Assembly (NCBI GenBank): GCA_964519305.1
Contig: CAZFHY010000004.1
Location: 32,001 to 96,000 of the forward strand
Direction: 5' to 3'
DNA length: 64,000 bases
Origin: Candidatus Undinarchaeota archaeon
GTDB taxonomy: Archaea > SpSt-1190 > JASMDC01
The translations under genes and the position numbers were made by a program. Shown here in pieces: positions 5,857 to 59,600 of this stretch. Each line of letters begins with the position of its first letter. Within the stretch, counting starts at the first letter, position 1. The notes under the pieces were generated by a model. That model was given only the letters and a program-made list of their open reading frames with translations, was not told the DNA's origin and searched no databases.

Positions 5857-6081
5857 ATTACATTCACCTGACAGGCCTTCTTGGCCCATCGGGGACCATT
5901 TAAATTCCTTTCTTTCGGGTGCATGCGGGCCGGGTGTGTCTTAGCTCCGTGATCAGTCCACGAGATAGGTCGGGATATGTACAGGGCAAGTAGGAACGAG
6001 AAGCAGGTGGATTCATGCGTGTTGATACGGCCGCTGCGCGCCCCGTTCGCCCAGAACGGGCTAGAATTACTTTTTTCCTAC

Positions 6082-10240: not shown

Positions 10241-10328
10241 CGGCTCGCGCCCACCCAAGACATTTTTATATGAGTGCCGCAGTGGCACGGTCTGTAAATG
10301 CCCAAGGGGTATAATCTGGTGAGAACAA

Positions 10329-11651: not shown

Positions 11652-11698
11652 CGGCGGCATCCGAAACCAATTTAACCTTTGGAAGTGGCCTGTGCGAT

Positions 11699-25459: not shown

Positions 25460-27121
25460 TCAGTCACCTAGGCCGGTCGCCTTATAGATAAAGTGACTGG
25501 GCACGCCATTCGAATACCGGACTTGTCCGACCTCGACGAGCCCATGCGCCAGAGGTTCGCAGCCGGGAGGGAGTTGAAATGGCAATCCCGGATCAAGGAA
25601 CGGCTCCATGGGAGCGATTATGAATACATCACGCGCAAGCTCATCCGAGGACGCTTCGAGGAAGGTGCATACGTTCGGCGATGTGACAATATGGTACGGA
25701 GGGGCCTCGAGATGCGGAGCAATGTCGTACTCATAGGCTTGGACGATATTCGATCCTATCATCGTGAAAGGTGCCACATGGACTTTCCCCGCAGGAGCCA
25801 CAACATCCCCCGCGATGCGGAGAGCTCTGCTGTGGCCCACCCTATACCGATATTGTGCGAGCACGTCTTCGGGATAGCGGACGAAATACGCGTCCAGGAA
25901 CACGACCATACTGATAAGTGATACCAACAGGATCACCGGCATGAAGAGCGGATACCGCCTCCCATCTATCTTGGTAAGAAGTGAGGTGATCCCGCGTGCA
26001 GCGGTCAGATGAAGAGCGGGTAGCAACACGAGTAACCGCCCAGCATGATGACCCCCCCATTGTGTGAACGCTGCAGGTAATGGGCCGATGAGGATCCAGA
26101 GCAGGAGAAGACGGTCCCGTCGGCGACGTTCAGTTATCAGCGAGACCAGTCCGGCAAGTATAAAGACCGCCTCCACTATGTGGAGCTGACCTATACCGCG
26201 AGGCGAGTGCCATAAGTTCGGGTCCCCGTTCAAGAACAGGAACCACGGAGAGAAGGAAGAAACATAGTTTGAAGCGATCGCCAGAGGAAGCCCGAGCGGG
26301 CGGGCCCACGCACCGAACGTCCCCTCGAGTCGTTCGGCCATCAATGCAGGTGCATCTGTCTTATGGATGCTCACCTGAGAGAACCGCGTTGTTGTCCGTG
26401 AAAACATCCCGGGAGAATATATCGGGAGCGCAAGGACCACGAGCACAGCGATACCGATCCCCAGATGACGCCTGTCCCGAAGGAGCATTTGGCGGGCGAT
26501 AATCCCAAATCCCAGAAGAAGGAGAGGGACGAAGAGACCAGCAGTAGGGTAGGAGTAGAGCGAAATGCCCATGACCCCGAACCCCGCCACGAGCCTTCGT
26601 GGGCGACCCCGCACCCCCGAAACCAACAGACACACCCCCATAGGTATGAGCGCCGTTAGCGGGATCGGATGGGTAAGAGCCATGCGCCCGAACTGCACAT
26701 CCCACGGCGATAGTGCTGTGAGAGCAGCTGCGAAGAGACCCTCGCGGGAGCCGAAGAGAGTCTGCCCCATACATCCTGCAGCCACGATCGCGATGATACC
26801 GAAGAGCGCGTAAGGTAACCGGGTCTGCATCTCACCGAATCCGAAGAGCATGGTCACCGGCACTGACATGTAGATGTGGAGCGGTGTCCGGTAATCGTCC
26901 AGCGCTCGAAAGAACAGAGGGTACCGCACCCCGTGCTGGTCCATACCGGTCAGGAGTATCGAGTATGCATCGTACCCATTAGAGTATTCATCGATATACA
27001 TCCCCCTTGGAACAGAACCCAACCAGGGAAGACGGAGGGCCGAACCCATGATTACGATGAGGACCAGCCATCTCCAGAAATCACGCGTTTCCATTCGCCC
27101 CATCAACATACACCTTGACAC
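25460..27121 (-). CDS. GT-C (ArnT-like) membrane glycosyltransferase
   Basis: LRLPWLGSVPRGMYIDE...GYDAYSILLTGMD..G...P, RLPYALFG, multiple TM helices. Confidence 0.88.
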   Translation of the reverse strand: MSRCMLMGRMETRDFWRWLVLIVIMGSALRLPWLGSVPRGMYIDEYSNGYDAYSILLTGMDQHGVRYPLFFRALDDYRTPLHIYMSVPVTMLFGFGEMQTRLPYALFGIIAIVAAGCMGQTLFGSREGLFAAALTALSPWDVQFGRMALTHPIPLTALIPMGVCLLVSGVRGRPRRLVAGFGVMGISLYSYPTAGLFVPLLLLGFGIIARQMLLRDRRHLGIGIAVLVVLALPIYSPGMFSRTTTRFSQVSIHKTDAPALMAERLEGTFGAWARPLGLPLAIASNYVSSFSPWFLFLNGDPNLWHSPRGIGQLHIVEAVFILAGLVSLITERRRRDRLLLLWILIGPLPAAFTQWGGHHAGRLLVLLPALHLTAARGITSLLTKIDGRRYPLFMPVILLVSLISMVVFLDAYFVRYPEDVLAQYRYRVGHSRALRIAGDVVAPAGKVHVAPFTMIGSNIVQAYEYDIAPHLEAPPYHIVTSPNVCTFLEASSDELARDVFIIAPMEPFLDPGLPFQLPPGCEPLAHGLVEVGQVRYSNGVPSHFIYKATGLGD

Positions 27122-39952: not shown

Positions 39953-42244
39953 GTGAACATCCTCGGGGTGTCCTTCAAAGCCCATGACAGATCGGCATGC
40001 ATCGTCCGCGATGGTCATGTGTTGGCCGCAGTGGAGGAGGAGCGGCTCAATAGGGACAAGCACACCGGCCACTTCCCCAAGAACTCCATCTTCGAGGTAC
40101 TGCGCCTGGCAGGGCTCACTCCCGATGATATCGACCTCGTCGCATATGGGGGTGAGGGGGCACGACCCATCGAACCTCCGCACCGCAGGTCCCGGGCTCA
40201 GCTAGCATCACTGTTCACCACGAACGTTCGTCTTCGCAATCAGGAGGAAGTGGACCGGATCCGGACTTTCTTTGCGGGCGAGCGTTCCAAACCGGTCGAG
40301 GTGGCCGCTGTCGACCATGAGACGGCACACTTGGCTTCAGCGGCCCTGTGCTCGGGATTCGATGGATGCACTGCTTTGGCTGTGGATGGGTATGGGGATG
40401 ATCGCTCGGCCGCCGTTGGCCGATGGGCTGACGGCTCCCTAGAGCTAGTAGCACCCTCCCCCCTACGCTCTTCCGTCGGGCTCGTGTACGGTTTGACTAC
40501 CCTCCTCCTCGGGCTGTCCATATGGCACGATGAGGGCAAGGTCACCGCCATGAGTTCGTTCCCGGGCGAGGTCCCGGATGGGATCGAACAACTATATGAG
40601 GCTCTCATGCCCCTTCCAAAAGAGGCAGAGCTGCAACCAACGGCCGAAGCCCTATTTGGGCTCCTTGATATTTCACCCGTCCCTCCCAGGGACCTGCGCA
40701 CTACACTCCATGGTTCGGAAGTGGTCCGACCCTCCCCCCGGTGGAGGCCGGAGCGCACGACGGAAGGGTATCTGTTACGACCTCCGTCCGGCAATCCATT
40801 GTCTGTAGAACCGCTCAAGGACGAGGAGTTCCGGGCACTATGGTACGTGCTCCGTCGCTCCCCCTCGGCACATGTTGATGAGGTCGTCCAGCTTGCCGCA
40901 CCTCTTGTTGGTATGAAGGACGAGGATGTTTGGGCCTGCCTCCTGCCCAGCGTCGAACTGCACAAGCGCCAAGGTGTGTTCTCGGCTTCCATGAGCGGTG
41001 GCCTGTCGCTCAGGCTCATCGAGCGTGACCACGCTGTGTACTCCCTGTGCGATGGGACGCGGACGACAACGAGCATTGCGGAGATGCTGGATATGGATGA
41101 AGGTGAGGTGCGGGACCTCGTTGAGTTCTCACCGCTCTGTCGCACTCTGTGGACGGGTGGTAACTCGTCCGGCGCCCCCGACACGGCAAGATTTGCGGAA
41201 AGGGCACTCAAAGCATTCCGGTCCTGGTACGACGCACGCGCAGTTGAGAAACCTCCCCTTGGGAAGCACAAAGGAACATTCATCGACGCCCCCGCGTACG
41301 CCGCGGTCCGAAGAGGGCTCTTTGAGAACACGACACGGCCTGCTGTGTCCAAGGCACTCCAGCGTAGGCTGGAGAAGGTGCTAACGTCGCTGGCGTCCCA
41401 AGCGGTCGAGCGCACGGGAGAGGCAAAGGTCGCCACCGCGGGAGGGGTGTTCCTCAATGTGCTGGCCAACATGAACATACGTCGACTGGATTGTGTCGAG
41501 GACCTGTTCATCCAACCTGCCGCAAGCGATGCAGGCACTTGTTTGGGTGCTGCGCTGTATGCTTGGCATCATCTGTGTCGCGAGGAGGGACAAAGACCCA
41601 CATCCCATCGCCTCGAGAGCGCATCCCTCGGCCCATCCTATACCGAGGACGATGTGCTGACGGCCCTCCGAGGGACACAGGGAATCACTTGGGATGCAAC
41701 TGACGATATGGCGGGTACAGCTGCGGACCTTGCTGCGGGAGGTGCTATTGTCGGTTGGTTCGAGGGACGAATGGAGTTCGGCCCTCGCGCCCTCGGCAAC
41801 CGTTCCGTGCTCGCCGATCCCGCTAACGCATCCACCAAGGACCGTATCAACCTCCTCCTCAAGGGCAGGGAATGGTACCAACCGTTCTGTCCCAGCCTCC
41901 CCCTGGCGCGGGCAGAAGAGTATCTGGTGGAAGGGCGGGAGGCGCCGTTCATGATCGAGGCCTATGATGTGCGTGCTGAGAAACGTGGTGAGATCCCGGC
42001 CGTCGTCCATGTCGATGGCACGACCCGGCCTCAGACAGTGCGGCGGGACCTACAGCCCGCCTACCACAGGGTGCTCACCGAGCTTGAGTCCCACACAGGT
42101 ATCCCCGTCGTGCTCAATACGTCCTTCAACATCCATGGTGAACCGATCGTGTGCACACCCCGGGATGCGCTCTCGGTGCTGGTCAGGCGTGGAGTGGACG
42201 TCCTTGTGATGGAGGGCTTCGTTGTCCGACGGACCAAGGACTAG
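39953..42244 (+). CDS. NodU/CmcH-family O-carbamoyltransferase with a large internal insertion (PqqD/RRE-like)
   Basis: HDRSA, EEERLNR.KH, HETAH, DGYGD, AGGVFLN, SDAG, EFGPRALGNRS, HVDGTTR, NTSFN.HGEP. Confidence 0.92.
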   Translation: MNILGVSFKAHDRSACIVRDGHVLAAVEEERLNRDKHTGHFPKNSIFEVLRLAGLTPDDIDLVAYGGEGARPIEPPHRRSRAQLASLFTTNVRLRNQEEVDRIRTFFAGERSKPVEVAAVDHETAHLASAALCSGFDGCTALAVDGYGDDRSAAVGRWADGSLELVAPSPLRSSVGLVYGLTTLLLGLSIWHDEGKVTAMSSFPGEVPDGIEQLYEALMPLPKEAELQPTAEALFGLLDISPVPPRDLRTTLHGSEVVRPSPRWRPERTTEGYLLRPPSGNPLSVEPLKDEEFRALWYVLRRSPSAHVDEVVQLAAPLVGMKDEDVWACLLPSVELHKRQGVFSASMSGGLSLRLIERDHAVYSLCDGTRTTTSIAEMLDMDEGEVRDLVEFSPLCRTLWTGGNSSGAPDTARFAERALKAFRSWYDARAVEKPPLGKHKGTFIDAPAYAAVRRGLFENTTRPAVSKALQRRLEKVLTSLASQAVERTGEAKVATAGGVFLNVLANMNIRRLDCVEDLFIQPAASDAGTCLGAALYAWHHLCREEGQRPTSHRLESASLGPSYTEDDVLTALRGTQGITWDATDDMAGTAADLAAGGAIVGWFEGRMEFGPRALGNRSVLADPANASTKDRINLLLKGREWYQPFCPSLPLARAEEYLVEGREAPFMIEAYDVRAEKRGEIPAVVHVDGTTRPQTVRRDLQPAYHRVLTELESHTGIPVVLNTSFNIHGEPIVCTPRDALSVLVRRGVDVLVMEGFVVRRTKD

Positions 42245-42693
42245 ACAAGGACATCGTCCCGTGCGATGACCTCACCATCGCACAAGAGGAGCGCCTCGAT
42301 CACCTCACCCGCCCCAATGCTCTCGAACAGAAGGTCAGCGCTGACGACCGTCCTTCCTTCGGATTTATCAGGCGAGATGTCCGCCCAAATATTCTGCCCA
42401 TAGAGGGAGGGAGCGATATCCTTCGGGACCGACACGTGCCATGCGTCATCCTGGCCGTTGTGGTCGAACGCCAGCACAAGTATCGCACATCGCCTGTCGA
42501 CCGGGCTTCCTTCCCAAGAGAGTTCGAGCGTTGTGCGATAGATCCCCTCTCCCGCAGGACTGGGCCGGTCCAGGATACGGGCGTTCACCGATGCGGTAGA
42601 TGATGGGGTGAACCGGGTGGAACCCATGACCACAAGGGCAACTAGCCCGACCACCAGTATCACCAGTAATATGTGCTCACGCAGGTGGACCAT
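42241..42693 (-). CDS. Membrane-anchored exported hypothetical protein (last gene of the Fe-S operon)
   Basis: N-terminal TM ILLVILVVGLVALVV; ATG 42693, 4 nt after the upstream stop. Confidence 0.65.
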   Translation of the reverse strand: MVHLREHILLVILVVGLVALVVMGSTRFTPSSTASVNARILDRPSPAGEGIYRTTLELSWEGSPVDRRCAILVLAFDHNGQDDAWHVSVPKDIAPSLYGQNIWADISPDKSEGRTVVSADLLFESIGAGEVIEALLLCDGEVIARDDVLV

Positions 42694-42697
42694 GACA

Positions 42698-43486
42698 TCA
42701 CCCGTACTTGAAGCTGAAGGACAGGGCATCCTTGGGACACACATCGATGCACCGTCCGCAGCGGATACACTCTCCCGTGGGTACTGTCCGATGACCGCGA
42801 CGGATAGAGTCCTCAATGACGAGGATGTCCATGGGACACTCGCGCTGGCAGACCATGCACTCGATGCATGTATCCTCATCAACCAATACGCGGAACGCGC
42901 TCACCTTGTCCAAGATAGCGGCCAGCCCCCCGAGCGGACAGATCGATTTGCACCAGAACCGTCGATGATAGATTATCACGAAGAGCGCAGATATGAAGGT
43001 GATGGTCAGACCGGGGATCATGGCAAGGTCGAAGGTCTGAGGACCCGCGGTCCGGTACAGGGCACCGTACGGGCACACCTGGCAGAACACAGGATATCCA
43101 AAGACCATGGCCGCCCCTATGAAGACTGCCAAGAGCTCGTACTTGAAGGAATAGCCCTGTAGGATGCGTGGAGGACTGCGCTCCCTGACGGGGAGCTTGA
43201 GCGCGTTCGCGGCGCTCATGATGGTGCCGAACGGACAAACCCATCCACACCACACACGTCCGAAGACGATCACGAAGAGCGTGAATCCACCAACTAGTAA
43301 TGTGAGGCGGGAGAAGCCGCGGATAGTACCAGCATCAAAGGCCTCGTCGAAAAGACCTGAACCTATAGCGCCCGCTACCTGCTGTACACCGATGAACGGA
43401 CAGTACCGTGCGATCCCACCGAGAATTAATACGGCGATGAGGAGGAATATCGCCTGGATCGGCCGACGGTACGTTTGGACGGTCAT
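42698..43486 (-). CDS. NapH/MauN-type membrane polyferredoxin
   Basis: RVWCGWVCPFG, FCQVCPYG, RFWCKSICPLG, two CxxCxxCxxxCP motifs. Confidence 0.9.
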   Translation of the reverse strand: MTVQTYRRPIQAIFLLIAVLILGGIARYCPFIGVQQVAGAIGSGLFDEAFDAGTIRGFSRLTLLVGGFTLFVIVFGRVWCGWVCPFGTIMSAANALKLPVRERSPPRILQGYSFKYELLAVFIGAAMVFGYPVFCQVCPYGALYRTAGPQTFDLAMIPGLTITFISALFVIIYHRRFWCKSICPLGGLAAILDKVSAFRVLVDEDTCIECMVCQRECPMDILVIEDSIRRGHRTVPTGECIRCGRCIDVCPKDALSFSFKYG

Positions 43487-44112
43487 GAGCGCACCACCTT
43501 ACGATCACTGGGCTTCAGAACGAGCACATCTGTCGGACAAACGTTCACGCAATGGCCACATCCCCTGCAGAAGTCCTCAAGGCGGGCGGTCTCACGTTCC
43601 AACGCGCCTTCCGAGATGGGCTCAAGGAGCTTGCGGTAGCGCATTACCTGCTCACCTTTCCCGGTAAGGTCGTTCTCAACGACCGTGTAGGGACAGGCCT
43701 CGTCGCATCGGTCACATTTGATACACCGCTCGGGATGGGCGAGAAACGCGGTGCCCAGCTTCGGTTGTCTACCGCTCTGCTGAAGTCCGGTCACGGTCCC
43801 GAGGTCGAGCACCTGGGTCGGACAGACCTCATTGCACTCATAACAGAACGTGCACGGACCCGGTTGGCCCGTAACGCGCGGTAGTCCGACCTCTTCTATC
43901 GGACCGGCAGACACGAGCTCAATAGCCTTGGTCGGACAGACCTGGGCGCACTGGCCACACCTGAGACAGAGGAGAGTTAACTGGCGAGGCTCCACGGCGC
44001 CGGGCGGACGTACATCTGTACCATTGCCCGTGGGTGGCGCCAGGGAGAGCGCCGCCGCCAGCGCAGCCCCGTACCCGAGAGCGGACCGCAGGAAGTCGCG
44101 TCGGTCGGCCAT
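43483..44112 (-). CDS. NapG/MauM-type Tat-exported 4x[4Fe-4S] ferredoxin
   Basis: DRRDFLR Tat motif, RPPGA, four CxxCxxCxxxCP motifs. Confidence 0.9.
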   Translation of the reverse strand: MADRRDFLRSALGYGAALAAALSLAPPTGNGTDVRPPGAVEPRQLTLLCLRCGQCAQVCPTKAIELVSAGPIEEVGLPRVTGQPGPCTFCYECNEVCPTQVLDLGTVTGLQQSGRQPKLGTAFLAHPERCIKCDRCDEACPYTVVENDLTGKGEQVMRYRKLLEPISEGALERETARLEDFCRGCGHCVNVCPTDVLVLKPSDRKVVRS

Positions 44113-44113
44113 T

Positions 44114-44554
44114 TCACACAAACCTCCCATCGTTCTTCAGATCATCGATGGCGCTCATGATGGGGAGCCCGAGAGGGCATGCCTGCTCACAGAGCCCGCA
44201 CCTTACGCATAGACGGGCCGCCTCCCGCACAGGCATGGCATGCTTTCCGTCCACTTGACCTGGTAGGTCAGGATTGTTCGTGCGCGCTGCGACAACGAAC
44301 CGCGAGGGATCGAGCCCCCGAGGGCAGACTGGCCGGCAGGCCTGGCACTCGTAGCAGGTGAGCGCCCACATATGACGTGTGCGCAATGCCTTCACCGCAT
44401 TGCTGCCAAGGAGGACCGCGAGAGCAAGAGAGGCCATGACGTTCCGCCTGACCTCATCAACGGGCATGGTAACGGTCCGTCGGGCTCGACGTCCAACGAA
44501 ACCTGCCACTCCCGCGCTCGCCGCCAGCAGCACCGCGATAATGACAGGTTCCAT
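44114..44554 (-). CDS. Membrane-anchored HdrC-like 2x[4Fe-4S] protein
   Basis: Two hydrophobic segments; CYECQACRPVCP and CVRCGLCEQACP. Confidence 0.85.
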   Translation of the reverse strand: MEPVIIAVLLAASAGVAGFVGRRARRTVTMPVDEVRRNVMASLALAVLLGSNAVKALRTRHMWALTCYECQACRPVCPRGLDPSRFVVAARTNNPDLPGQVDGKHAMPVREAARLCVRCGLCEQACPLGLPIMSAIDDLKNDGRFV

Positions 44555-44565
44555 TTTTGAAGCAC

Positions 44566-44709
44566 CTAGAACAGGAACATCAGCAGCCCGGTCACAAGGC
44601 CGCCCATGATACCTCCGGGCTTGTAGAACGTATAGCCCAGGGCATAGTTGAACATTGCACCACAGAGGGCGCCGATCCCGACCATCGTCAGCAAGAGTCT
44701 CGTGTTCAT
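44566..44709 (-). CDS. 47-aa two-helix membrane peptide (below the ORF-track cutoff)
   Basis: MNTRLLLTMVGIGALCGAMFNYALGYTFYKPGGIMGGLVTGLLMFLF*; fills the operon gap, GGTGA RBS upstream. Confidence 0.7.
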   Translation of the reverse strand: MNTRLLLTMVGIGALCGAMFNYALGYTFYKPGGIMGGLVTGLLMFLF

Positions 44710-44716
44710 AGCAAAA

Positions 44717-45457
44717 TCACCCCGAAAGGGTTCCGTTGGATATCAGTAGCATTATGAGGGCGGTCACAGCCGTCATCAACAGGATGCCCGCCTGCTGGGC
44801 CCTGGTGCTGGCACCTGGTTCGAGCCCAAGCTCACCCTCGCCCACGGCAGCGATCCCGCCGAGGCGTGAGGGGGCACAGGACGCGGCGGCGTTGACGATG
44901 AAAGCGGCCACGAGCACGTGGGTCGCGAACGGAGCATGATCTGCAGCCCCTGTGGCAGCGATACCGGGCGTGAGGACTTCGTTCCCGAACCTCACGACGC
45001 CCGGCAGGAAGGCCGCCGCAGTGATGCGGCCACAGGGCAATGGAATGAGCGCAGGTATGTTCGCTAACAGAACGGCCGTCCCGACCAGTCCCAGAGGTGT
45101 TGTCATCGCAAGCCTCTCGAGGACCTCGACCATCGCATCATATCCTCCTGCGAATCCCAGTGCACCCGCGGCCATGAAGCCACCGGTCATGGCCATGATG
45201 GGATGGAGCATTATCCCTGCCAAGAGGTCAGCAAGCGTCGCCTCCGATACCACCAGCATGAACAATGCTAGTGCCACCAGAACGGTCTGAATAGGGATCG
45301 GAGGAGGTGCCACCTGGGCGTACGCGAGCGTCGTTGCGAACACCAACAGGCAGATGTACCCTGTCCTGAGGTGCTTATCGTCGATGCGGGAACGGATGAT
45401 CACCAGGGCCACAGCAATCCAGACAACCGCTCCGATTAAAGGAATAGAGAGATCCAT
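44717..45457 (-). CDS. Multi-pass membrane protein with PCGR and NAAASCAPS motifs (paralog B)
   Basis: Hydrophobic 246 aa; clear paralog of 45462..46148. Confidence 0.85.
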   Translation of the reverse strand: MDLSIPLIGAVVWIAVALVIIRSRIDDKHLRTGYICLLVFATTLAYAQVAPPPIPIQTVLVALALFMLVVSEATLADLLAGIMLHPIMAMTGGFMAAGALGFAGGYDAMVEVLERLAMTTPLGLVGTAVLLANIPALIPLPCGRITAAAFLPGVVRFGNEVLTPGIAATGAADHAPFATHVLVAAFIVNAAASCAPSRLGGIAAVGEGELGLEPGASTRAQQAGILLMTAVTALIMLLISNGTLSG

Positions 45458-45461
45458 TACC

Positions 45462-46148
45462 TTATCGCCCTCCTGCCTTCAGGGGCGCAAGCCGCCCGAG
45501 GACCACTGCAGTAAAAGCGGTCCCCGCCATTATTCCCGCGCGTAGAGGGTCCGAGAAAGCACCGACAGGCTGACCGGTCATGCCCTCACCAATCATTCCT
45601 AGGCCCCCTAAGATTGAAGGTGCACATGATGCGGCGGCATTGACCGTGAAAGCGAACACAACGACCGCTACTAAGCGATCGTCACCCTGACGTTCTGCGA
45701 CTGCCCGACCGAGGAAGAGTGCGGCCGGGAGCAGCGCGGCACCAAGTATTCGGCCACAGGGGAGGGCGATTATGGCGGGCGAATTGACGAGCAGGACCAC
45801 CACTCCTGGAAGGCCGAATACTTCCATCCCACCGATCTTGAACGAGGCGAGCCGGTCAAGGGCATCCACCAGTGCCTCGAAGGCACCGGAAACTTCCAGG
45901 CCACCAACTACCAGGAATCCGGCTATCAGAGCTGTGATGGGATGGAGCTGGATGGAAGCTAATAGGTCCGCAGGAGTGATGGTGCGCGCCAGTCCCTGAC
46001 GAGCACCTACTACGGAGATGAGCACAATAAGGAGCGTCACACCGAGCAACGCCGTATGAATGGGTATATGGTTCTGAGGGATGATCCCCTTCAATGAGAG
46101 AACGATGGTCGCGAGGAACAGAGCGAGCGCAAGGTATCCGACGATCAT
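45462..46148 (-). CDS. Multi-pass membrane protein with PCGR and NAAASCAPS motifs (paralog A)
   Basis: Hydrophobic 228 aa; ATGA overlap with the HdrB-like gene. Confidence 0.85.
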   Translation of the reverse strand: MIVGYLALALFLATIVLSLKGIIPQNHIPIHTALLGVTLLIVLISVVGARQGLARTITPADLLASIQLHPITALIAGFLVVGGLEVSGAFEALVDALDRLASFKIGGMEVFGLPGVVVLLVNSPAIIALPCGRILGAALLPAALFLGRAVAERQGDDRLVAVVVFAFTVNAAASCAPSILGGLGMIGEGMTGQPVGAFSDPLRAGIMAGTAFTAVVLGRLAPLKAGGR

Positions 46149-46978
46149 ATCATCCCCTCCTCGGCCGCTTTCCGGGCAGCACGGCGCTCCTTGGCCTCGT
46201 TGACCACACGTTCGAGGTTCTTTGTGAAGTCGTCCATACCGAATGCCACCAAGAAGGCCAATGATACGACCTTCATGTTCGCAGCTGCTTTGCGCAGGGC
46301 AGGATCGGTATCTTCGTCAGCCACCACTTCCGCGAGAGCTTCGCTCAGGGAAATCTCGCATCGGGGGCAGGCGGTCACGATTAGGTCGGCCTTGGTCGCC
46401 AGGGCATTACGTATCTTGCTGGAGCGTAAGGATGTGGCCACTTCAGGATCACTCGCCCGGAGGCCTCCAGAGCCGCCGCAACAGGACTCGGCCTCCTCCA
46501 TTTCGATAACCTCAAGGCCACGAATAGCGTCAAGGACATCCCTCATGACCGCATTGTCCACACCCATCCCCCGGTTGAGATGGCAAGGATAATGAACGGT
46601 AACTCGAGCGTTCACCTCTCCGAGCCCGCTCTTGCGGAGGAACTCCATTTTCTCAGGAAGTAGTTCGATGAAATGGGTGACCTCGATACCTCTTCGTGCT
46701 ACGTCCGCAGAATCCATGAGCGCGGTCCCGCAACCAGGGCATGACACCAGTACTTCGTCCACAGGACCTTGCAATCGACCCCAGCCACTGACGGAGATGT
46801 TGATGAGCTTGTCCTTTGCTGCCATATCGCCGATGAACGATGACGGTCTCCCACAACAGATGTCCCTGGGGGGTTCGGTCACTTCAATCCCGAGCTTCTT
46901 CAGAAGGTATCGTACCGCATATCTTGTGTCAAGTAGCTGGAGCCCGTAGAAACAACCGTCGAAGACCAGGCGTTGCAT
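46145..46978 (-). CDS. CCG-domain Fe-S protein (HdrB/GlpC-like)
   Basis: GC...CCG...CPGC and YPCH...CCGGSGG...TACPRC: two CCG domains. Confidence 0.88.
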   Translation of the reverse strand: MQRLVFDGCFYGLQLLDTRYAVRYLLKKLGIEVTEPPRDICCGRPSSFIGDMAAKDKLINISVSGWGRLQGPVDEVLVSCPGCGTALMDSADVARRGIEVTHFIELLPEKMEFLRKSGLGEVNARVTVHYPCHLNRGMGVDNAVMRDVLDAIRGLEVIEMEEAESCCGGSGGLRASDPEVATSLRSSKIRNALATKADLIVTACPRCEISLSEALAEVVADEDTDPALRKAAANMKVVSLAFLVAFGMDDFTKNLERVVNEAKERRAARKAAEEGMI

Positions 46979-47763
46979 TACGATCCCTCCAAAGACCTTG
47001 TCGAACGCTTCCGTCCTCCAGTGCCCTTCTTCGCAGACCTTTTCGAGGCTTTCTTCTTCACTGATTTCTTTGAACGATCGCTCTTCGAGTTCTTTTTCGG
47101 CTCCACTGTCTCTTTCTCGGCAACCGTACGTTCAGGCTCTGTATCAGCGGTCCCGTCGTTAGTATCGTCAGGCCTGTCCTTGTCGAGCGTCGTTTCCGGA
47201 CCGTCCGCTGACGAGACCTCTTGTTCTTTTTCTTCAAGGTGTCGCTCAAGCTGTCGTGCGCTCCTTAGGATGGACCGGGCCTGCGATGCAGGATCGGGTC
47301 GGCTCTTGATCTCGCCGAGGACGTTCCTTGCTTTTTCTAGCCTTTCGAGTAGTTTTACCTGACCATCGGTCGCCCCATCCTTACCGAACCGGATACCTCT
47401 ACCTGCGAGCACCATTGCTTCAGCGTCCAGTCCTCGAGGGCATCGTTCCACGCAGTTACGACATGTAGAACAAATATGGAGCCCTCCAGCCATTATCCGC
47501 GCGTCATGTCCAGCACGGAGCGAGCGCATGACCTCGGCAGGCCCTATGAATGTGGCCCTGCCCTCCCCTTCCTTGTTATCGATCTCTTTTGCGATAGCCA
47601 CTACAGGACATACTGCAGTACATTGACGACAGTCGGTGCATAACAGGGTCCTTGAGACCTCGCGGAAGATGGCCGAGAGGATAAGGAGGGTCGGTACTGT
47701 CATCAGGAGGAGTGCGACACCCCCGTGCAGTGCCGTGGGCCCTCCCGGGAGAAAGGAGACCAT
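46978..47763 (-). CDS. HdrC-like 2x[4Fe-4S] protein with N-terminal TM and Lys-rich tail
   Basis: CTDCRQCTAVCP, CSTCRNCVERCPRG; its TAA overlaps the next ATG. Confidence 0.85.
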   Translation of the reverse strand: MVSFLPGGPTALHGGVALLLMTVPTLLILSAIFREVSRTLLCTDCRQCTAVCPVVAIAKEIDNKEGEGRATFIGPAEVMRSLRAGHDARIMAGGLHICSTCRNCVERCPRGLDAEAMVLAGRGIRFGKDGATDGQVKLLERLEKARNVLGEIKSRPDPASQARSILRSARQLERHLEEKEQEVSSADGPETTLDKDRPDDTNDGTADTEPERTVAEKETVEPKKNSKSDRSKKSVKKKASKRSAKKGTGGRKRSTRSLEGS

Positions 47764-47853
47764 CGGGATGCGGGCGGTGCCACATGCTTAAATGTATTCA
47801 CCCGGAGAGTTTAACCGAAATATTTAAATAGCAAGATTGTATTATTACTACTA

Positions 47854-51447: not shown

Positions 51448-53232
51448 TCATATACACCTTCTGAGTGCCAAGATACCTGCTAGATGAATCCAGTGGACAA
51501 TGGCCACATAGCAGGCCACGATAAGGAGCAGGAACCACGATTTCTCGCCGAAGCGCTCCCGACAGCGCCCCCACAACTCGGCAATACCCTCACTCGACAT
51601 CAGAAGGAGAGTCGGATAAAGGAACATCAGATGGCGGTGCTGGCTACAGTAAGCGATGGGTACACGATGAACTATGAAGAAGAGCGACAGCACAATTGGG
51701 AATGCAGCTACTGATACCGCTGCTCCTGTACCTCGACGTCTCAGGGAGAGCACACCCACCATGGCCAGAAGGGTGATGAGCGACGCATGGTGGTCGCCCC
51801 CGAACAGATAGTATATCATCCATCCTGCATTGGCCGTCAGGTATTCCGGAGTGAGTATCATCCCTCCCAGAACGGGTGTTTCGTCAACAAAGGCCATGGC
51901 CTCGAGCATGAGGGCTAGGGCGGGTAGGGCCGCGGCCAGGAGAAGGAAGACGAGCGGGGCCTTGAGCTTGCGGGGAGGAAGGTCGCATGCTAGAAGGAGG
52001 AAAGCTAACCATGGGACCAGAGTAACGAGGAGAGGTCTGATGGTGAACAAGGCCATCCCCATGGCCGCAGCACCCGCGTACAGGTGGGAGCGGGAGCTCG
52101 ACCGTGAACCACGCACCATGAGGAACAACGAGACGGTCATGAAGAGGCTAGCCAGCCCGTCCCGTCGGACCGCCGTGGCGTACAATAGATCGAGAGGAAG
52201 AGCAGTAAGAAGGGCTGCTGCGGCCAGGCCTGCGCGCGGGCTGAAGAACGCGGCACCGAGGAGACCGAGAGCGAGCACGTGGGCCAGCGATACGGTAAGT
52301 GACGCGGCCATGGCCGTCCCTTCGGCTCCCCAAGAAGATACACCCGTCCCGAAAGCGGCATACACGAGGGACAAGAAATAGGGATGGCCTGAACCGAAAG
52401 GCCAGAATACCGTCGATCCCCCCAATAAGTACTGAGCGAACCATGCGTTGCGCATATTATTGATCATATGTGTACGCTGGAACAGGTCCCCGTACCACAC
52501 ACGCAGAACGAGGGCGGCAAAGAGGATGATGACCATCGCGGTCCACCAGGACCTTCCAAGGGAACGGAACCATAGCATGTCCCGTCTAATGGACAGGACA
52601 AGTAGGACGAGCAGGAACATGAGCATGATAGGGACCGCCGTGCTCTCCACCTGCATCATCGATGTCGTGTTTCGCTGTTCCTCGGTGTGGATGGCGAAGT
52701 TGTCCTGCTCCAGATAGACTATGTCCTGCAAACGTGCTGAAGTGAGATCGATCGTGGTCCCATGCACGAGGGATGGAGGGAGGCGATACGTGGCGTTGAT
52801 GCTGGAGAATCCCGTTCGCGGATCGGGATCAAAGGAGACCGTCAGCACCATCGCACTATCCAATGCATGATCGTCCGGGACGTGAAGAACGTGCTCAATA
52901 ACATCCCCGTCCCTGTACATCGTGTCATTCACACCATTGAGCTTTCTCCAGCCGATCCTGTCGATGACCAATGGACGTATCGTGAAATTATAGGTGTAGA
53001 GCTGCAGCGTCTGGAAAAGGGCAGGAAGTTCCCCGTCCCCAGAGAATGATGATATGACACGGAAGGTGTCAATCCTTCCCTTTGCGTTCACGTCCCCATG
53101 GACGGCTAGGATCGAGAACGGTCTATCGCGAGGCTGAGGGAGACGAGGTTCCAGAGAGAGGATAGAGAGTACATCGAAGGCGAGGACAGAGAGGATGAGG
53201 GCGATTACCAAAGGCCCTACATAGCGCGACAT
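51448..53232 (-). CDS. GT-C (PMT-2-like) membrane glycosyltransferase with N-terminal extracellular domain, paralog 2
   Basis: Same motifs; shares YYLFGGDHHASL and HRVPIAYC with paralog 1. Confidence 0.8.
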   Translation of the reverse strand: MSRYVGPLVIALILSVLAFDVLSILSLEPRLPQPRDRPFSILAVHGDVNAKGRIDTFRVISSFSGDGELPALFQTLQLYTYNFTIRPLVIDRIGWRKLNGVNDTMYRDGDVIEHVLHVPDDHALDSAMVLTVSFDPDPRTGFSSINATYRLPPSLVHGTTIDLTSARLQDIVYLEQDNFAIHTEEQRNTTSMMQVESTAVPIMLMFLLVLLVLSIRRDMLWFRSLGRSWWTAMVIILFAALVLRVWYGDLFQRTHMINNMRNAWFAQYLLGGSTVFWPFGSGHPYFLSLVYAAFGTGVSSWGAEGTAMAASLTVSLAHVLALGLLGAAFFSPRAGLAAAALLTALPLDLLYATAVRRDGLASLFMTVSLFLMVRGSRSSSRSHLYAGAAAMGMALFTIRPLLVTLVPWLAFLLLACDLPPRKLKAPLVFLLLAAALPALALMLEAMAFVDETPVLGGMILTPEYLTANAGWMIYYLFGGDHHASLITLLAMVGVLSLRRRGTGAAVSVAAFPIVLSLFFIVHRVPIAYCSQHRHLMFLYPTLLLMSSEGIAELWGRCRERFGEKSWFLLLIVACYVAIVHWIHLAGILALRRCI

Positions 53233-56614: not shown

Positions 56615-59600
56615 ATGAAAGGTGCCCGCCGACGCATCCTGTTGATGGCAGTGGTCCTTGCCATGAGCCTCGGCTGCAGCGCATGGTGCTTCAGCACTTC
56701 CACAACGAGCTGCCTCCCTCAAGCAAGAAGTAGCCTCTGTTACTACAGCGGATACTATCAATATCCGAAATGCTGCTACAGCTACCGGAACTCCAAGCCC
56801 TCATGCGCTCAGACCATCAGTGGCACTACCTGTAAGTACGGCGGGAGCACATCCTGCACGTCCACCGGCTGGTCGACGTGCTCCTACTCATACCAGGACA
56901 CGAACAAGCCCGGTTGCGCTTACAAGGTGGACGGTAACATATGCTATTACTCGGGCAGCGCGCAGTGTACCGCTGGCGGTTGGGAGTGCGACTACCAGAG
57001 CACCTCGAAACCGGCCTGCGCCCACTACCCGGACCAGAGCACATGCTACCATTCCGGTACGACCGGATGCACCGCATCCGGATGGTCGACATGTGACTTC
57101 CAGACCGACAGTAAACCCGCATGCGCGAACTACGCAAGCGGGAACACATGCTACCACTCGGGATCGACCCAGTGCACTGCAACTGGGTGGTCCGCCTGCG
57201 ATTTCCAGACAGAGACCAAGCCCGCGTGCGGGAATTATGCGAGCGGGAGCACATGCTTTCACTCAGGAACATCACAATGCAAGGCGACAGGATGGGAATG
57301 CAGCTACCAGACGGAGACCAAGCCCACCTGTGGCAATTACGCGGACGGGAACACATGCTATCATTCGGGCACGGCACAGTGCACCGCCTCAGGATGGGAG
57401 TGCGACTACCAGACAGAGTCCAAGCCAGCGTGCGGTAACTATGCCGACGGGAACACATGCTATCATTCGGGCACGGCGCAGTGCACCGCCTCGGGATGGG
57501 AGTGCGACTACCAGACCGAGACCAAGCCAGCCTGTGCGTCCTATCTAGATGGCAACATCTGCAAGCACTCGGGAGTTAGCGAATGTACAGCGTCGGGATG
57601 GTCCGGCTGCTCTTTCGAGAGCGAGACCCGACCTACATGCGGACATTACCCTAACGGGAACTCCTGCTACCACACGGCCAATCCAGAGTGCCAGGCCGGG
57701 GGATGGTCGGACTGCAAGTACGAGATCGACTTTAGTCCCGATTGCTCTGCCACTGCCAGTGACCGTCTTTGCCAATATGGCGGTAGTACGACATGCACGT
57801 CTACGGGTTGGGATGTGTGCGCCTTCCCCCACCAGGATACCAACAAGCCCGATTGTGGGCCGCAACCGGACGGGAACACCTGTAGTTATTCTGGGGAGAC
57901 GGATTGCACGGAGAGCGGATGGGCGTCATGTAATTACCAGAGCGACACGACGAAGCCCGACTGCAGCCCCCGGGAGAGCGGAACTAATTGTGACTATGGT
58001 GGGATCACGTCATGCACATCGTCAGGGTGGTCCCAATGCACGCATTCCTCCGATTCGAACAAGCCTGTCTGCAATCCCGTTGCATCTGGCGACACATGTT
58101 ATTACGGCAGGTACACCCGGTGCGGTTCCAGCGGGTGGAGCGAGTGCACTCACACTTATCAGGATACTAACCAGCCCAGTTGCGAACCCGATCCCGTGGG
58201 GGACACCTGTCGATACTCGGGCAGCACGTCCTGTAGTGAGTCTGGATGGAAGAGTTGTATCTACAGCCAGCAGGACAGTGGCAAGCCCGCATGTAATCCG
58301 AAGCCCGTGGGAGACACCTGCCAATACCAGGGCTCAACAGAGTGCACGTCGAGCGGATGGGAAGGTTGTACTTACGCGGCCTCGGACGCTTCACGCCCCA
58401 CCTGCACCCCCACCGCCGACGGTGACTCCTGCCATTATGGTGGCGTAAGCGTGTGCGGCAGCTCCGGATGGACCCCCTGTTCGGACAATGTGGACAATGA
58501 TCGGCCGAACTGTGAACCCGAGTCCGTCGGGAACACATGCAGCTACTCGGGATCCAGCTCGTGCACAACCACAGGATGGTCTGGTTGCGATTATGCGCAC
58601 GAGGACGCCGGCAAGCCGGATTGCGGACCAAAGGACGAGGGGAACACATGCAGCTATGGAGGGAATGCACAGTGCACGACCGCCGGATGGTCGAGCTGTT
58701 CCTACTCGCTGACCGATACGAACAAGCCGACCTGCAATCCTTCGCCCTTGGATAGTACGTGTCGGTACAGCGGGCATACCACCTGTGGGAGCGGAGGATG
58801 GGAGGCGTGCGCCTTCGACTACTCCGACACGAACCCCCCCGACTGCTCTCCTTACACGGAAGGTACCTATTGCTACTACCAGGGCAGCTCCTCGTGCGGG
58901 AGCGGAGGATGGACGGAGTGTAGTCACAGCGGGTCCGACTCGCAGCGACCGGCATGCCCGCCCAAGCCCGAGGGCAACGCATGCAAGTTCGGTGGTTCGC
59001 CGGAGTGTACGGAGTCGGGATGGGGCGAATGTGCGTACACCTCGAGCGATACACAGCGACCCGCGTGCGCACCGTACACGGACGGCAACATCTGCTATTA
59101 TGGGGGGACACCACAGTGCGGTACCGACGGATGGTCCGAGTGCGACTACGAAAGCTCCGACCATCAGCGACCAGCATGTCCGCCCGATGAGGACGGGAAC
59201 ACCTGTAAGTTCGGTGGCTCTCCCGCATGCACGGAATCGGGCTGGGGTGGCTGTACATTCACATCCCAGGAGTCCAACAAACCCGACTGTGGCCCGGTGG
59301 CCCAGGTGGACGTGTGCCAGTTCGATGGGTGGACCCAGTGCACAGCGTCCGGCTGGGCTACCTGCACCTTCAACCAGCAGGATGCGAGCAGACCTGCCTG
59401 CGAACCAGAGGCCTCTGGCACTAACTGCCGTCACAGTGGGACTGCTACATGTAAAACGGACGGCTGGTCGGACTGCGAGTACACCATAGACACTTCGATG
59501 CCAGCCTGCCCCCACTACTCTTCGGGCCGGACCTGCAACTACAGAGGCACAACGTCATGCACGGCCTCAGGATGGTCCACTTGCGACTATAACGAGGACA

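Follow-up and report, generated by a model that had tools for sequence, protein, structure and literature searches.

The analysed window is a 64,000-nt stretch of contig CAZFHY010000004.1 from a Candidatus Undinarchaeota archaeon. At positions 42241-47763 it carries an operon of nine genes, tightly packed and all on the minus strand, to which every coordinate below refers. A sequence-only reading of this DNA had given overlaps or gaps of at most 11 nt; the tight packing stands, but the overlap of g6 and g7 comes to 17 nt when the longest ORF is taken, and g7 probably starts at its second Met (44112). For g9, the most likely start is the ATG at 42693, 4 nt past the g8 stop codon, rather than 42882. 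A same-genus genome carries the nine genes in the same order with amino-acid identities of 81–93% and crude pN/pS ratios of 0.11–0.37, values that point to purifying selection on the operon. A core consisting of the TM-ferredoxin, the CCG protein, memA, memB, a 47-aa peptide and the NapH-like protein is found again in a distant archaeon and across many further lineages; the gene set is thus kept together elsewhere. Pfam, NCBIfam and motif scans of the nine ORFs also returned the domain make-up that had been described from the letters of the DNA.

The first gene, g1 (46978..47763), combines a single N-terminal TM helix (aa 15–33), an HdrC-type ferredoxin domain (Pfam Fer4_8/Fer4_17) with two CxxCxxCxxxCP motifs (at aa 42 and 98), and a long charged C-terminal tail; it scores 30.5 bits against the HdrC model TIGR03290 (cut-off 160). 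The C-terminal side of the anchor carries K/R in 22 of 24 g1-type homologues, and a cytoplasmic location is predicted for the ferredoxin domain. The second type of anchored ferredoxin is represented by g6 (44114..44554), in which TM1 leads into a cytoplasmic loop (RRARR); an RR motif then precedes a second hydrophobic stretch, which closes with AVKA, and two CxxCxxCxxxCP motifs come after it. Here, it is the N-terminal side of the anchor that carries K/R (18/19 g6-type homologues), and the predicted location of the ferredoxin domain is extracellular. Archaeal g6-type homologues start with RRF, RRDF or RREF motifs, and TatC was found in the genome. The NapG-like polyferredoxin g7 (43483..44130), with an RRDFL twin-arginine signal and four CxxCxxCxxxCP motifs, is likewise predicted to be exported; its score against NapG (PRK09476) is 71.6 (cut-off 269). 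Charge bias and twin-arginine motifs therefore agree with the earlier assignment of iron–sulfur domains to both membrane faces. NapH-like g8 (42698..43486; Pfam Fer4_5, 57.5 bits; 120.8 against TIGR02163, cut-off 213) has four TM helices, of which TM2 and TM4 are each followed by a CxxxCP motif, and a C-terminal two-cluster domain with two ferredoxin motifs; in Thermoplasmata, its orthologues form fusions with a cytoplasmic Fer4_20 plus Pyr_redox_2 module. The soluble HdrB-like protein g2 (46145..46978) matches Pfam CCG in two stretches (99.1 bits), and its exactly ten cysteines make up two complete C...CCG...CxxC sets (9, 41, 42, 80, 83 and 132, 166, 167, 204, 207), while its best NCBIfam matches all remain below cut-off (TfrB 136 vs 385, LdhH 109 vs 800, HdrB 66 vs 345). 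The last gene, g9 (42241..42693), encodes 150 aa with a signal anchor (aa 8–26) and an outside domain of ~120 aa; it has no Pfam family and no ESM Atlas match of at least 0.85 (best 0.83), and relatives were found in this genus only (81% identity in the same-genus genome, pN/pS 0.37), with none in the other 70 loci surveyed.

The membrane part comprises memA (45462..46148), memB (44717..45457) and the glycine-rich, hydrophobic, two-helix 47-aa peptide (44566..44709). memA and memB share 42% identity as well as a PCGR and a SCAP motif, and neither matches a Pfam or NCBIfam family; memA has an HP motif at aa 69–70, and memB here has an extra N-terminal TM helix. The peptide is 62% identical in the distant archaeon. 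Natural single-chain memA–memB–peptide proteins exist in other organisms, where the peptide is fused to the memA–memB end (483–485 aa), and the three pieces lie side by side or fused in 68 of the 71 loci surveyed, which argues that they are one unit. This membrane family is rare, with 69 representatives among 1.84 billion clusters. We tested its fold on a fused homologue modelled by AlphaFold2 (pLDDT 88.9, pTM 0.89), in which the counterpart of the peptide forms helices 439–459 and 467–482. Foldseek against the PDB gave 35 matches at E ≤ 1e-3, every one a carrier of the ion-transporter superfamily, including VcINDY (E 7e-7) and, as the best structural match by TM-score, ArsB (0.63 and 0.69). 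The best ten named matches in the ESM Atlas all belong to the same clan as these carriers, the nearest clusters being C4-dicarboxylate carriers. Judged by this model, memA, memB and the peptide are a split elevator-carrier fold of the DASS and ArsB kind, with memA as the first inverted repeat (N-terminus outside, C-terminus inside) and memB as the second, whose core enters from the cytoplasmic side. The "paired-Cys membrane subunits" of the sequence-only reading thus keep their paired cysteines and change their identity to two inverted repeats of a DASS/ArsB-like elevator fold. The predicted topology agrees with the secreted N-terminal parts of some memA homologues (a signal peptide with CARDB or beta-helix domains), the K/R-rich soluble N-termini of memB homologues, and the K/R-rich or otherwise highly charged A–B linkers of natural fusions.

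Both cysteines of memA, the only two it has, occupy invariant positions. Cys131 in PCGR (codon 45756..45758) is invariant in alignment A1, and Cys175 in NAAASCAPS (codon 45624..45626) is at least 90% conserved there, the exceptions being truncated sequences. In memB, Cys142 in PCGR (codon 45032..45034) and Cys194 in SCAP (codon 44876..44878) are invariant in alignment A4 (n = 22). Their counterparts C119, C163, C341 and C385 are each present in 39/39 fused homologues, and in the fused model each lies in a coil between two helices, one per helix-break-helix element: C119 in coil 115–119 between helices 100–114 and 120–142, and C163 in coil 162–170 between helices 147–161 and 171–179, where a discontinuous helix is broken. 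All four are kept in the most distant relatives despite different flanking residues, a pattern that marks them as essential to the membrane family. By presumed analogy with DASS carriers, they may be arranged as two distinct pairs and not as a single four-Cys site.

No heme motif was found in the operon proteins, which in motif terms bears out their description as heme-free. The window had also been said to lack HdrA, HdrE, NapA and hydrogenase subunits, and Pfam searches of 20 flanking or large window ORFs indeed returned housekeeping and envelope genes only. In the genome (99.8% complete), three molybdopterin matches all lie on other contigs. McrA was not found, so CoM-S-S-CoB would not be the substrate here. 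MenA, MqnA/D and NuoH were not found in the genome either, and it probably has no quinone pool; together with the lack of a heme motif, this would call for a path made of Fe–S clusters only.

We surveyed 71 loci from archaea and bacteria and took partner counts from the 44 with at least 3 kb on both flanks, counting as a ferredoxin partner any anchored ferredoxin of the g1 or g6 type that is encoded on the same strand no more than 5 kb away. Such a ferredoxin lies near the membrane pair in 38 of the 44 loci, and a CCG protein in 15. This comparison overturns cytoplasmic disulfide chemistry as a constant of the system, and leaves the earlier membrane-wire interpretation standing in part, on the conserved gene set and the two-sided iron–sulfur domains. 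The varying partners include HdrB-like CCG proteins, NapH-like proteins (also fused to the Fer4_20 plus Pyr_redox_2 NAD(P)H module), an FMN_bind-TM-ferredoxin protein, multiheme cytochromes, a molybdopterin enzyme with its Fer4_11 subunit, and SdhAB-like and dehalogenase/QueG-like proteins. In Spirochaetota, the loci further include a DUF59 (FeS_assembly_P) protein anchored in the membrane, a DsbD_2 protein and a PpiC-type foldase; separate DsbD_2 proteins are encoded in several loci. Loci of Desulfobacterota, Acidobacteriota and KSB1 contain fumarase C-terminal-domain and SdhA/SdhB-like genes. These fumarase/Sdh-type loci resemble classical carrier-plus-enzyme operons.

We propose that the operon encodes an all-iron–sulfur transmembrane redox complex, a modular, heme-free electron relay with its redox centre in a transporter fold, and we see about an even chance that this is correct. 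In this organism, the relay would probably be quinone-independent too. The cytoplasmic face would hold g1 with its two [4Fe-4S] motifs, HdrB-like g2 and the C-terminal two-cluster domain of g8, and the outside face g6 on its twin-arginine-type signal anchor, Tat-exported g7 with four cluster motifs, and the small anchored g9. Between them, memA, memB and the peptide would assemble into one pseudo-symmetric elevator-type unit, with the hairpin of memA entering from the inside and memB as the inverted repeat. In carriers of the elevator fold, hairpin tips and broken helices make the substrate and ion site. Here, the four cysteines, one per hairpin tip or broken helix, would hold a putative redox centre, most likely a bound Fe–S cluster, that passes electrons across the membrane between inward-facing and outward-facing ferredoxins; the assembly and the direction of flow are likewise what we infer from this arrangement. 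The DASS/ArsB-like fold gives a structural basis to the earlier suggestion of possible ion coupling, which, along with elevator-like movement, may accompany electron transfer. A precedent exists in RnfA/RnfE and NqrD/NqrE, inverted paralogues that share an intramembrane Fe–S centre with two Cys each, but RnfA/RnfE show no detectable sequence relation to memA/memB (hhalign probability 0.1%). Because the partners vary and are redox modules, a generic electron-transfer module fits better than a single-solute carrier. Several observations count against the relay. Its fold is one that solute carriers have, and the likeness of the fumarase/Sdh-type loci to carrier operons also points to transport. 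In six of the 44 loci, the place of a nearby anchored ferredoxin is taken by a B12-radical-SAM protein, a PEMT-like methyltransferase and TPR proteins. Among the window ORFs scanned, none encodes a terminal oxidoreductase or suggests an obvious substrate. Bacterial outward-type ferredoxins, moreover, carry no RR motifs, which leaves their cluster loading outside the cell unexplained. If true, the relay may be a new heme-free way to move electrons across a membrane.

The same fold raises the possibility of an ordinary ion-transporter-superfamily secondary carrier, an explanation we consider unlikely though worth weighing. Its cysteines would then surround the bound substrate, a solute either thiophilic or anionic in nature (metal or metalloid, sulfur compound, C4-dicarboxylate) that the co-encoded redox enzymes process after transport. 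Besides the carrier-only Foldseek matches, this explanation can draw on the ESM Atlas neighbours DcuA/B, CitMHS, MatC and DctM, a weak, sub-cut-off Pfam CitMHS match of homologue P0053 (E 9e-4), the fumarase and SdhA/SdhB-like genes, and the fact that the best structural match, ArsB, exports thiophilic metalloids. However, the enzymes differ wholly between lineages while the anchored ferredoxins stay constant, which makes a single shared substrate unlikely, and solute-metabolising enzymes are absent from the archaeal loci. Neither memA nor memB matches a carrier-family profile, the hhalign probability against E. coli ArsB is 0.8%, and four invariant cysteines with flanking Pro and Gly are, to our knowledge, unusual in this superfamily.

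We regard as improbable a DsbD/CcdA-like thiol-disulfide shuttle, in which a g2-type CCG protein reduces a hairpin-tip/broken-helix disulfide inside and alternating access presents the dithiol outside. HdrB chemistry is disulfide reduction, and g2 has both CCG motifs complete, as in disulfide-reducing HdrB; the cysteines stand beside Pro and Gly at helix breaks in inverted repeats, which we take to be CcdA-like, and could form the two close pairs suggested by DASS carriers. Yet CCG proteins accompany only a minority of the loci, the loci examined showed no thioredoxin-like partner on the outside, the separate DsbD_2 proteins would make the role redundant, and no DsbD or CcdA profile in Pfam matches memA or memB.

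An exporter of Fe–S clusters, or of iron and sulfur, that matures outward ferredoxins inserted unfolded appears very improbable to us. It would account for bacterial g6-type ferredoxins that face outward by charge bias and lack an RR motif, and for the DUF59, DsbD_2 and PpiC-type proteins of Spirochaetota, but the twin-arginine motifs of archaeal outward ferredoxins, g6 and g7 included, together with TatC, make export in a folded and loaded state possible, and export offers no account of the CCG and NAD(P)H modules or of the ferredoxin that faces inward.

That NapGH, an HdrBC-type complex, DsrMKJOP/Hmc/Tmc or Rnf is present here as a diverged copy is scarcely credible, for although the CCG, HdrC-type ferredoxin, Fer4_5 NapH-like and Tat polyferredoxin domains are all known, NCBIfam equivalogs for HdrB, HdrC, NapG, NapH, DsrK, TfrB and others all score far below cut-off, no HdrA, NapA, cytochrome b, flavin or NrfD-type subunit was found in the nine proteins and the 20 window ORFs scanned, a complete Rnf is encoded separately in the genome, and our literature search found no description of this complex, in line with its having been called apparently undescribed. 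A putative TATA-box-like element, TTTAAATA (47821..47828), which we take to resemble the archaeal TATA consensus, was read in the intergenic region between the divergent genes, 58 nt before the start codon of g1.

The nine co-directional genes that the sequence-only reading had placed at 42241-47763 on the minus strand were all recovered in an ORF listing, and their domain content was taken from Pfam and NCBIfam scans together with a motif and hydropathy scan. The first, g1 (46978-47763, minus strand, as are all the others), encodes a single TM helix, two CxxCxxCxxxCP motifs and a charged tail, and is followed by g2 (46145-46978), whose product carries two CCG domains with 10 Cys in total, amounting to two full C...CCG...CxxC sets. 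Behind it lie memA (45462-46148) and memB (44717-45457), paralogues with 42% identity, a hydrophobic, glycine-rich peptide of 47 aa (44566-44709) and g6 (44114-44554), in which a pair of hydrophobic stretches precedes two ferredoxin motifs. The operon continues with g7 (43483-44130; twin-arginine signal RRDFL and four ferredoxin motifs), g8 (42698-43486; four TM helices, CxxxCP behind TM2 and TM4, and two C-terminal ferredoxin motifs) and g9, a signal-anchored protein. The start of g9 is most likely the ATG at 42693, 4 nt past the g8 stop, which gives 150 aa, and g7 probably starts at its second Met, 44112. The element TTTAAATA, which lies 58 nt upstream of g1 and resembles the archaeal TATA consensus, is a candidate TATA element. 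All nine genes occur in the same order in a same-genus genome, with amino-acid identities of 81-93% and crude pN/pS values of 0.11-0.37; the nine, including g9 and the 47-aa peptide, therefore look truly coding. Genes of opposite orientation border the operon, and its neighbours are unrelated housekeeping and envelope genes. For g9 we found no Pfam family, no homologue in the other 70 of the 71 loci that carry the membrane pair, and a best ESM Atlas neighbour (0.83) that is uninformative. The operon was present in 8 DNA runs from two marine/seawater metagenome studies, each run possibly a source of the host assembly, and in no RNA run among the runs listed.

The membrane unit formed by memA, memB and the peptide belongs to a rare family. 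Among 8000 candidates scored from a 5.8-billion-sequence collection, 25 proteins reached E <= 1e-3, and of 1.84 billion clusters searched with a profile, 69 had a representative at or below the same E-value. Some of these representatives are a single chain of 483-485 aa in which memA, memB and the 47-aa peptide follow one another, and others bear a signal peptide and CARDB or beta-helix domains N-terminal to memA. The AlphaFold2 model of memA alone (20-row alignment) was of mediocre quality (pLDDT 70.4) and gave no PDB match at E <= 1e-3 in Foldseek, with 127 matches at E <= 10. The natural fusion was modelled at pLDDT 88.9 and pTM 0.89 from a 39-row alignment, and its 35 PDB matches at E <= 1e-3 are all elevator-type carriers of the ion-transporter superfamily. 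Its matches include VcINDY (E 7e-7), Pho90, NaS1 and NaDC1/3, ArsB (TM-scores 0.63 and 0.69, rmsd 5.6 Å), the TRAP proteins SiaQM and IseQM, and the AbgT proteins YdaH and MtrF. Independently, the ESM Atlas neighbours of memA are half-length DcuA/B, CitMHS, MatC, DctM and DcuC clusters. The two inverted repeats typical of the superfamily are thus seen on the fused homologue rather than on the window proteins, and memA and memB fall outside the sequence profiles of the DASS/ArsB/CitMHS clan, matching no family in Pfam or NCBIfam. The sole sequence-profile signal to the carrier clan is a CitMHS Pfam match below threshold in one homologue; hhalign against E. coli ArsB gave a probability of 0.8% and detected no sequence homology, and an HMM of the memA alignment gave chance-level matches only against PDB sequences (E >= 1, GABA receptor). 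A complex prediction of memA, memB, the peptide and g6, run without controls, returned an ipSAE of 0.02 twice (mark 0.32) and counts neither way.

Each half of the fused model consists of three helices, a helix-coil-helix element, a helix-coil-short helix element and a last helix. Elevator carriers build each repeat from three scaffold helices, a hairpin, a broken helix and a final helix, so that in the model each half corresponds to one of their inverted repeats. The predicted unit thereby resembles DASS carriers such as VcINDY, ArsB, TRAP DctM/SiaQM and AbgT, in which two inverted repeats each contain a hairpin and a broken helix; the 47-aa peptide contributes the two terminal helices. The N-terminus of memA is probably outside because secreted domains are fused to it in homologues, and memB probably starts inside because the linkers between the two halves are charged and the N-termini of memB homologues are K/R-rich. 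Helix pattern and topology evidence therefore match memA to the repeat with a hairpin inserted from the cytoplasmic side and memB to the inverted one.

Four cysteines are invariant in 39/39 fused sequences; their counterparts are C131 and C175 in memA, which has no other Cys, and C142 and C194 in memB. The most distant relatives (E 1e-4 to 1e-12) keep all four though the flanking residues differ. The fused model shows all four in coils, one per helix-break-helix element, and in carriers of the ion-transporter-superfamily fold such elements form the substrate and ion site. A His-Pro motif, as well as Asn and Glu near the cysteines, is invariant or almost so. The unit departs from elevator carriers in three respects: in the window the fold is divided over two genes and a peptide, the hairpin tips and helix breaks hold invariant Cys (PCGR, SC[AG]PS) where carriers have polar motifs, and the genes sit among those for Fe-S proteins.

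The anchored ferredoxins beside this unit fall into two types of opposite orientation. Positively charged residues (K/R) lie C-terminal of the anchor in 22/24 g1-type proteins, which therefore should have their ferredoxin domain in the cytoplasm, beside the signal-less CCG protein, and N-terminal of the anchor in 18/19 g6-type proteins. Archaeal g6-type proteins begin with RRF, RRDF or RREF. The window g6 starts with a TM helix and an RRARR loop, followed by an RR motif and a hydrophobic stretch ending in AVKA; judging by the residues, the last two can be read as an internal twin-arginine signal anchor, and TatC is encoded in the host genome. The K/R bias and the RR motifs thus indicate that the operon puts Fe-S domains on both membrane faces. 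Its 12 canonical cluster motifs are accompanied by zero heme motifs, so the heme-free character proposed earlier holds across the operon. Predicted clusters number two in g1, two of CCG type in g2 and two at the C-terminus of g8 on the inside, and two in g6 and four in g7 on the outside. In the alignment of g6-type ferredoxins, those of Altiarchaeota lack the first two Cys of the second cluster motif, with a DPLxGxC-type sequence in place of CxxCxxC, and the remaining two Cys are invariant; this cluster may use Asp/Glu ligands or ligands from a partner protein.

We scanned one genome per species (185,579 species) and found 71 loci with the membrane pair, 31 archaeal and 40 bacterial. The archaeal ones come from Thermoplasmata, Methanomassiliicoccales, Hydrothermarchaeota, Halobacteriota, Methanobacteriota and Altiarchaeota as well as from a near-identical relative that bears the label Undinarchaeales, and the bacterial ones from Spirochaetota, Coatesbacteria, Desulfobacterota-type lineages, Acidobacteriota, Zixibacteria, Planctomycetota, KSB1 and Clostridia. 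With the full nine-gene order in the same-genus genome and the pair in these loci, the gene set proves to be kept together elsewhere, as the sequence-only reading presupposed. The memA and memB domains are fused or adjoining in 68 of the 71 loci, and two of the three exceptions are second copies with only a memB-like and a NapH-like gene. A lone memB-like gene lies directly 5' of a NapH-like gene, with no memA, at L059:6001-7506 (in G023, a distant archaeon with the core operon) and at L063:4401-5946 (in a Hydrothermarchaeota MAG); such a repeat might pair with itself in both orientations.

In the 44 loci whose two flanks each span at least 3 kb, counting same-strand genes within 5 kb, a g1-type or g6-type anchored ferredoxin neighbours the membrane unit in 38, a CCG protein in 15 and a NapH-like protein in 14; the peptide is under-counted because it is short or fused. 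The six remaining full-flank loci belong to Zixibacteria and Coatesbacteria; near the membrane unit they encode a B12-radical-SAM protein, a PEMT-like methyltransferase and TPR proteins in place of a ferredoxin. Neighbour identities, backed by Pfam, vary by lineage. Most archaea have the order TM-ferredoxin, CCG protein, memA, memB, peptide and NapH-like protein, and in Thermoplasmata and Methanomassiliicoccales the NapH-like protein is fused to a Fer4_20 and Pyr_redox_2 NAD(P)H module. Altiarchaeota show a fused memAB, one or two peptides, a g6-type ferredoxin and two more anchored Fe-S proteins, followed by a NapH-like protein, a g1-type ferredoxin, a CCG protein, a CBS protein and DsbD_2. 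In Spirochaetota an anchored DUF59 protein, DsbD_2 and dehalogenase/QueG-like membrane proteins precede a fused memAB-peptide, and a g6-type ferredoxin, a further Fe-S protein, a small g1-type ferredoxin and a PpiC foldase follow it. The Desulfobacterota/Acidobacteriota/KSB1 order opens with a fumarase C-terminal-domain protein, a Tat NHL propeller, the fused memAB and a g6-type ferredoxin, continues with an FMN_bind-TM-ferredoxin and then either a multiheme cytochrome or a molybdopterin enzyme and its Fer4_11 subunit, and ends with SdhB-like and SdhA-like proteins.

The constant elements are thus a transporter-fold unit with four invariant Cys and an anchored ferredoxin for each side, the rest being variable redox modules, and a constant core with variable redox partners is the pattern that a generic transmembrane electron-transfer module would show. 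This pattern therefore favours a Cys-held redox relay, and we put roughly even chances on a redox centre held by the four cysteines passing electrons between the inward and outward ferredoxins. The closest functional analogue of the membrane unit is, by comparison of layout, the non-homologous RnfA/RnfE or NqrD/NqrE pair, likewise membrane paralogues of opposite topology with two conserved Cys per member. The conserved Cys of Rnf and Nqr hold an Fe-S centre within the membrane, through which electrons cross without heme. Unlike RnfA/RnfE, memA and memB have a DASS/ArsB-like predicted fold, the operon has no flavin subunits, and the host genome encodes a separate, complete Rnf. Homology of memA to RnfA/RnfE was rejected: hhalign of the memA alignment against the RnfA and RnfE of the host gave a probability of 0.1%, and neither memA nor memB matched the Rnf-Nqr family (PF02508) in Pfam. 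We consider the architecture categorically new in combining a carrier fold, four invariant Cys and ferredoxins on both faces; the function given for it here is a proposed one.

The main competitor of the Cys-held relay is a true carrier with a thiophilic or dicarboxylate substrate, which would account for the fold match, the ESM Atlas neighbours and the fumarase and Sdh-like genes of some bacterial loci. A carrier for one solute is hard to square with constant ferredoxins amid variable redox modules, and we regard this reading as unlikely. Fold and relay might also be combined, since an elevator fold with conserved Asn and Glu makes conformational or ion coupling conceivable. In such an "electron elevator", a carrier fold turned redox device, the mobile transport domain would carry a Cys-bound Fe-S cluster in place of a solute and move it between the inward-facing and the outward-facing ferredoxin, and ion-site chemistry kept in the invariant Asn and Glu near the cysteines would couple each electron to Na+ or H+. 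This ion-coupled version is speculative and we would not expect it to be correct; if true, it would add a further heme-free, quinone-free energy-coupling site beside Rnf and Nqr, in modular use by anaerobic archaea and bacteria.

We consider it improbable that the membrane unit works as a DsbD-like thiol-disulfide shuttle, with the HdrB-like protein restoring its reduced state. DsbD and CcdA move reducing power without heme or quinone, and they share with the membrane unit inverted repeats and essential Cys beside Pro at mid-membrane helix breaks. They differ from it in having two such Cys rather than four and thioredoxin-like partners rather than ferredoxins; neither memA nor memB matched DsbD_TM or DsbD_2 in Pfam, and some related loci contain separate DsbD_2 genes. 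Very improbable, too, is an Fe-S exporter that would serve those outward ferredoxins that have no RR motif.

The idea that the operon encodes a diverged known complex can be practically set aside, since all nine proteins fall below the curated HdrB, HdrC, NapG, NapH, DsrK, TfrB and Rnf thresholds and neither Pfam nor NCBIfam has a family for the membrane unit. The g2 protein has the two CCG domains of HdrB (Pfam CCG, 99.1 bits in two stretches; Cys 9/41/42/80/83 and 132/166/167/204/207) and scores far below the HdrB equivalog cut-offs (TIGR03288, 66 vs 345.15; NF041780, 26.8 vs 450). The host genome, 99.8% complete, has no MCR_alpha match, which speaks against the CoM-S-S-CoB reaction of HdrB; for lack of McrA we reject methanogen-type heterodisulfide reduction for this organism, a rejection not extended to the Halobacteriota and Methanomassiliicoccales loci. 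Both g1 (30.5) and g6 (19.0) miss the HdrC cut-off of 160 (TIGR03290) despite the two CxxCxxCxxxCP motifs in each, and are membrane-anchored, unlike HdrC, which is soluble. The g7 protein has a Tat signal and four motifs yet stays below the NapG cut-offs (PRK09476, 71.6 vs 269; TIGR00397, 53.5 vs 178.85). The g8 protein shows the NapH layout of four TM helices, two CxxxCP and a C-terminal two-cluster domain (Pfam Fer4_5, 57.5 bits) and scores under the NapH cut-offs (TIGR02163, 120.8 vs 213.05; PRK09477, 118.4 vs 234). As to a nap context, the window has no molybdopterin enzyme, and the three matches in the host genome are on other contigs.

The operon resembles HdrDE, DsrMKJOP, Hmc and Tmc in pairing a cytoplasmic CCG and ferredoxin module (g1 and g2 recall HdrD or DsrK) with an exported polyferredoxin (g7 recalls DsrO) linked through membrane subunits. 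It differs from such Hdr-type complexes in that its membrane part is a transporter-fold pair plus a NapH-like protein, with no cytochrome b (HdrE/DsrM), NrfD-type subunit (DsrP) or cytochrome c (DsrJ). Pfam and NCBIfam found no cytochrome b, NrfD-type or cytochrome c domain in the nine proteins, and the DsrK, TmcB and HmcF models gave 21-31 bits against cut-offs of 400-750 (DsrK NF045796, 22 vs 400). With NapGH, and also NosR, PceC/RdhC and MauMN, the operon shares the NapH layout of g8 and the Tat-type four-cluster protein g7, but unlike NapGH systems it has neither NapA nor an FMN-binding domain; the extra membrane unit and the anchored ferredoxins are outside any described Nap, Nos or Rdh system. 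To our knowledge, the route by which electrons cross in NapH, NosR and RdhC-type proteins is still unresolved. In the part of Meheust et al. 2021 (PMC8238504) that bears on them, NapH-like proteins are proposed to be modular transmembrane electron-transfer devices. Chadwick et al. 2022 (PMC9012536) describe sporadic NapH homologues in ANME genomes, one directly 5' of an 8-heme cytochrome; the portion of the paper concerned with them does not mention the genes upstream. Consistent with the earlier suggestion of an undescribed complex, a full-text literature search, supplementary tables such as those of PMC8238504 and PMC9012536 apart, turned up no account of this gene set and none of a Cys-bearing split DASS/ArsB-like protein.

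We know of very few systems, essentially Rnf and Nqr, in which electrons cross membranes free of heme and quinone. With ferredoxins on both sides of a transporter-fold protein, the module is a concrete candidate for another heme-free crossing. Confirmation would make the unit a case of a solute-carrier fold taken over for electron transfer and would provide an extracellular electron exchange route in quinone-free anaerobes (Altiarchaeota, Thermoplasmata, ANME-related archaea, Spirochaetota). It would also explain the working partners of some of the sporadic ANME NapH homologues, as far as these are set out in PMC9012536. Should the unit prove to be no more than a carrier, it would still represent an undescribed, unusually Cys-dependent branch of a major transporter superfamily.

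The host genome, of 3.6 Mb, encodes three CCG proteins and four NapH-like proteins. MenA, MqnA/D and NuoH were not found in it with the queries used; a quinol-dehydrogenase role of the NapH-like protein is therefore doubtful in this organism, and the NapH-type reading is weakened accordingly. The three further NapH-like (Fer4_5) proteins lie on contig C13 (L086:4106-6319) and on contig C1 at ~52.7 kb and 407 kb. The C13 protein, of 737 aa, has a signal peptide and a large outside domain N-terminal to its NapH-like part, a layout resembling NosR. The same-genus relative measures 3.8 Mb and other genomes of the class in the collection 0.6-1.2 Mb, so the host is either of odd size for its class or doubtfully placed; its near-identical relative carries the label Undinarchaeales.

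Several further features of the related loci were observed. Two tandem copies of the small peptide, not one, occur in several archaeal loci (L030:10314-10622, L034, L013, L014, L031 and L036). An anchored protein of ~120 aa with a conserved Cys-containing C-terminal part and no Pfam family, absent from the window operon, is often found 5' of memA or fused to its N-terminus (L009:5902-6273, L030:8292-8993, L068:8598-8972). Spirochaetota loci such as L045 (5656-6141) encode an N-terminally membrane-anchored DUF59 (FeS_assembly_P) domain. Its gene and the adjoining ones for DsbD_2 and a PpiC-type foldase share a cluster with the fused memAB, a set that hints at redox-protein maturation outside the cell. 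G023, the distant archaeon, encodes a multiheme cytochrome of 232 aa with numerous CxxCH motifs (L009:9296-9994, contig C82) ~0.7 kb downstream of the NapH-like gene. It is followed by ORFs at 9997-11010, with Cys-rich ferredoxin-type motifs, and 11044-11880, both putative F420-linked enzymes on inspection by eye. The arrangement recalls one of ANME-2c touched on in PMC9012536.

The window itself contains two giant ORFs, one at 56615-64000 (plus strand) of at least 2461 aa that extends past the window and has no Pfam family, the other at 1315-5889 (minus strand) of 1524 aa with only a weak HmuY match. Two ORFs of 920 and 602 aa at 11699-16263 matched no family, and three PMT_2-type glycosyltransferase membrane proteins are encoded at 16267-18012, 25460-27121 and 51448-53232, all on the minus strand.
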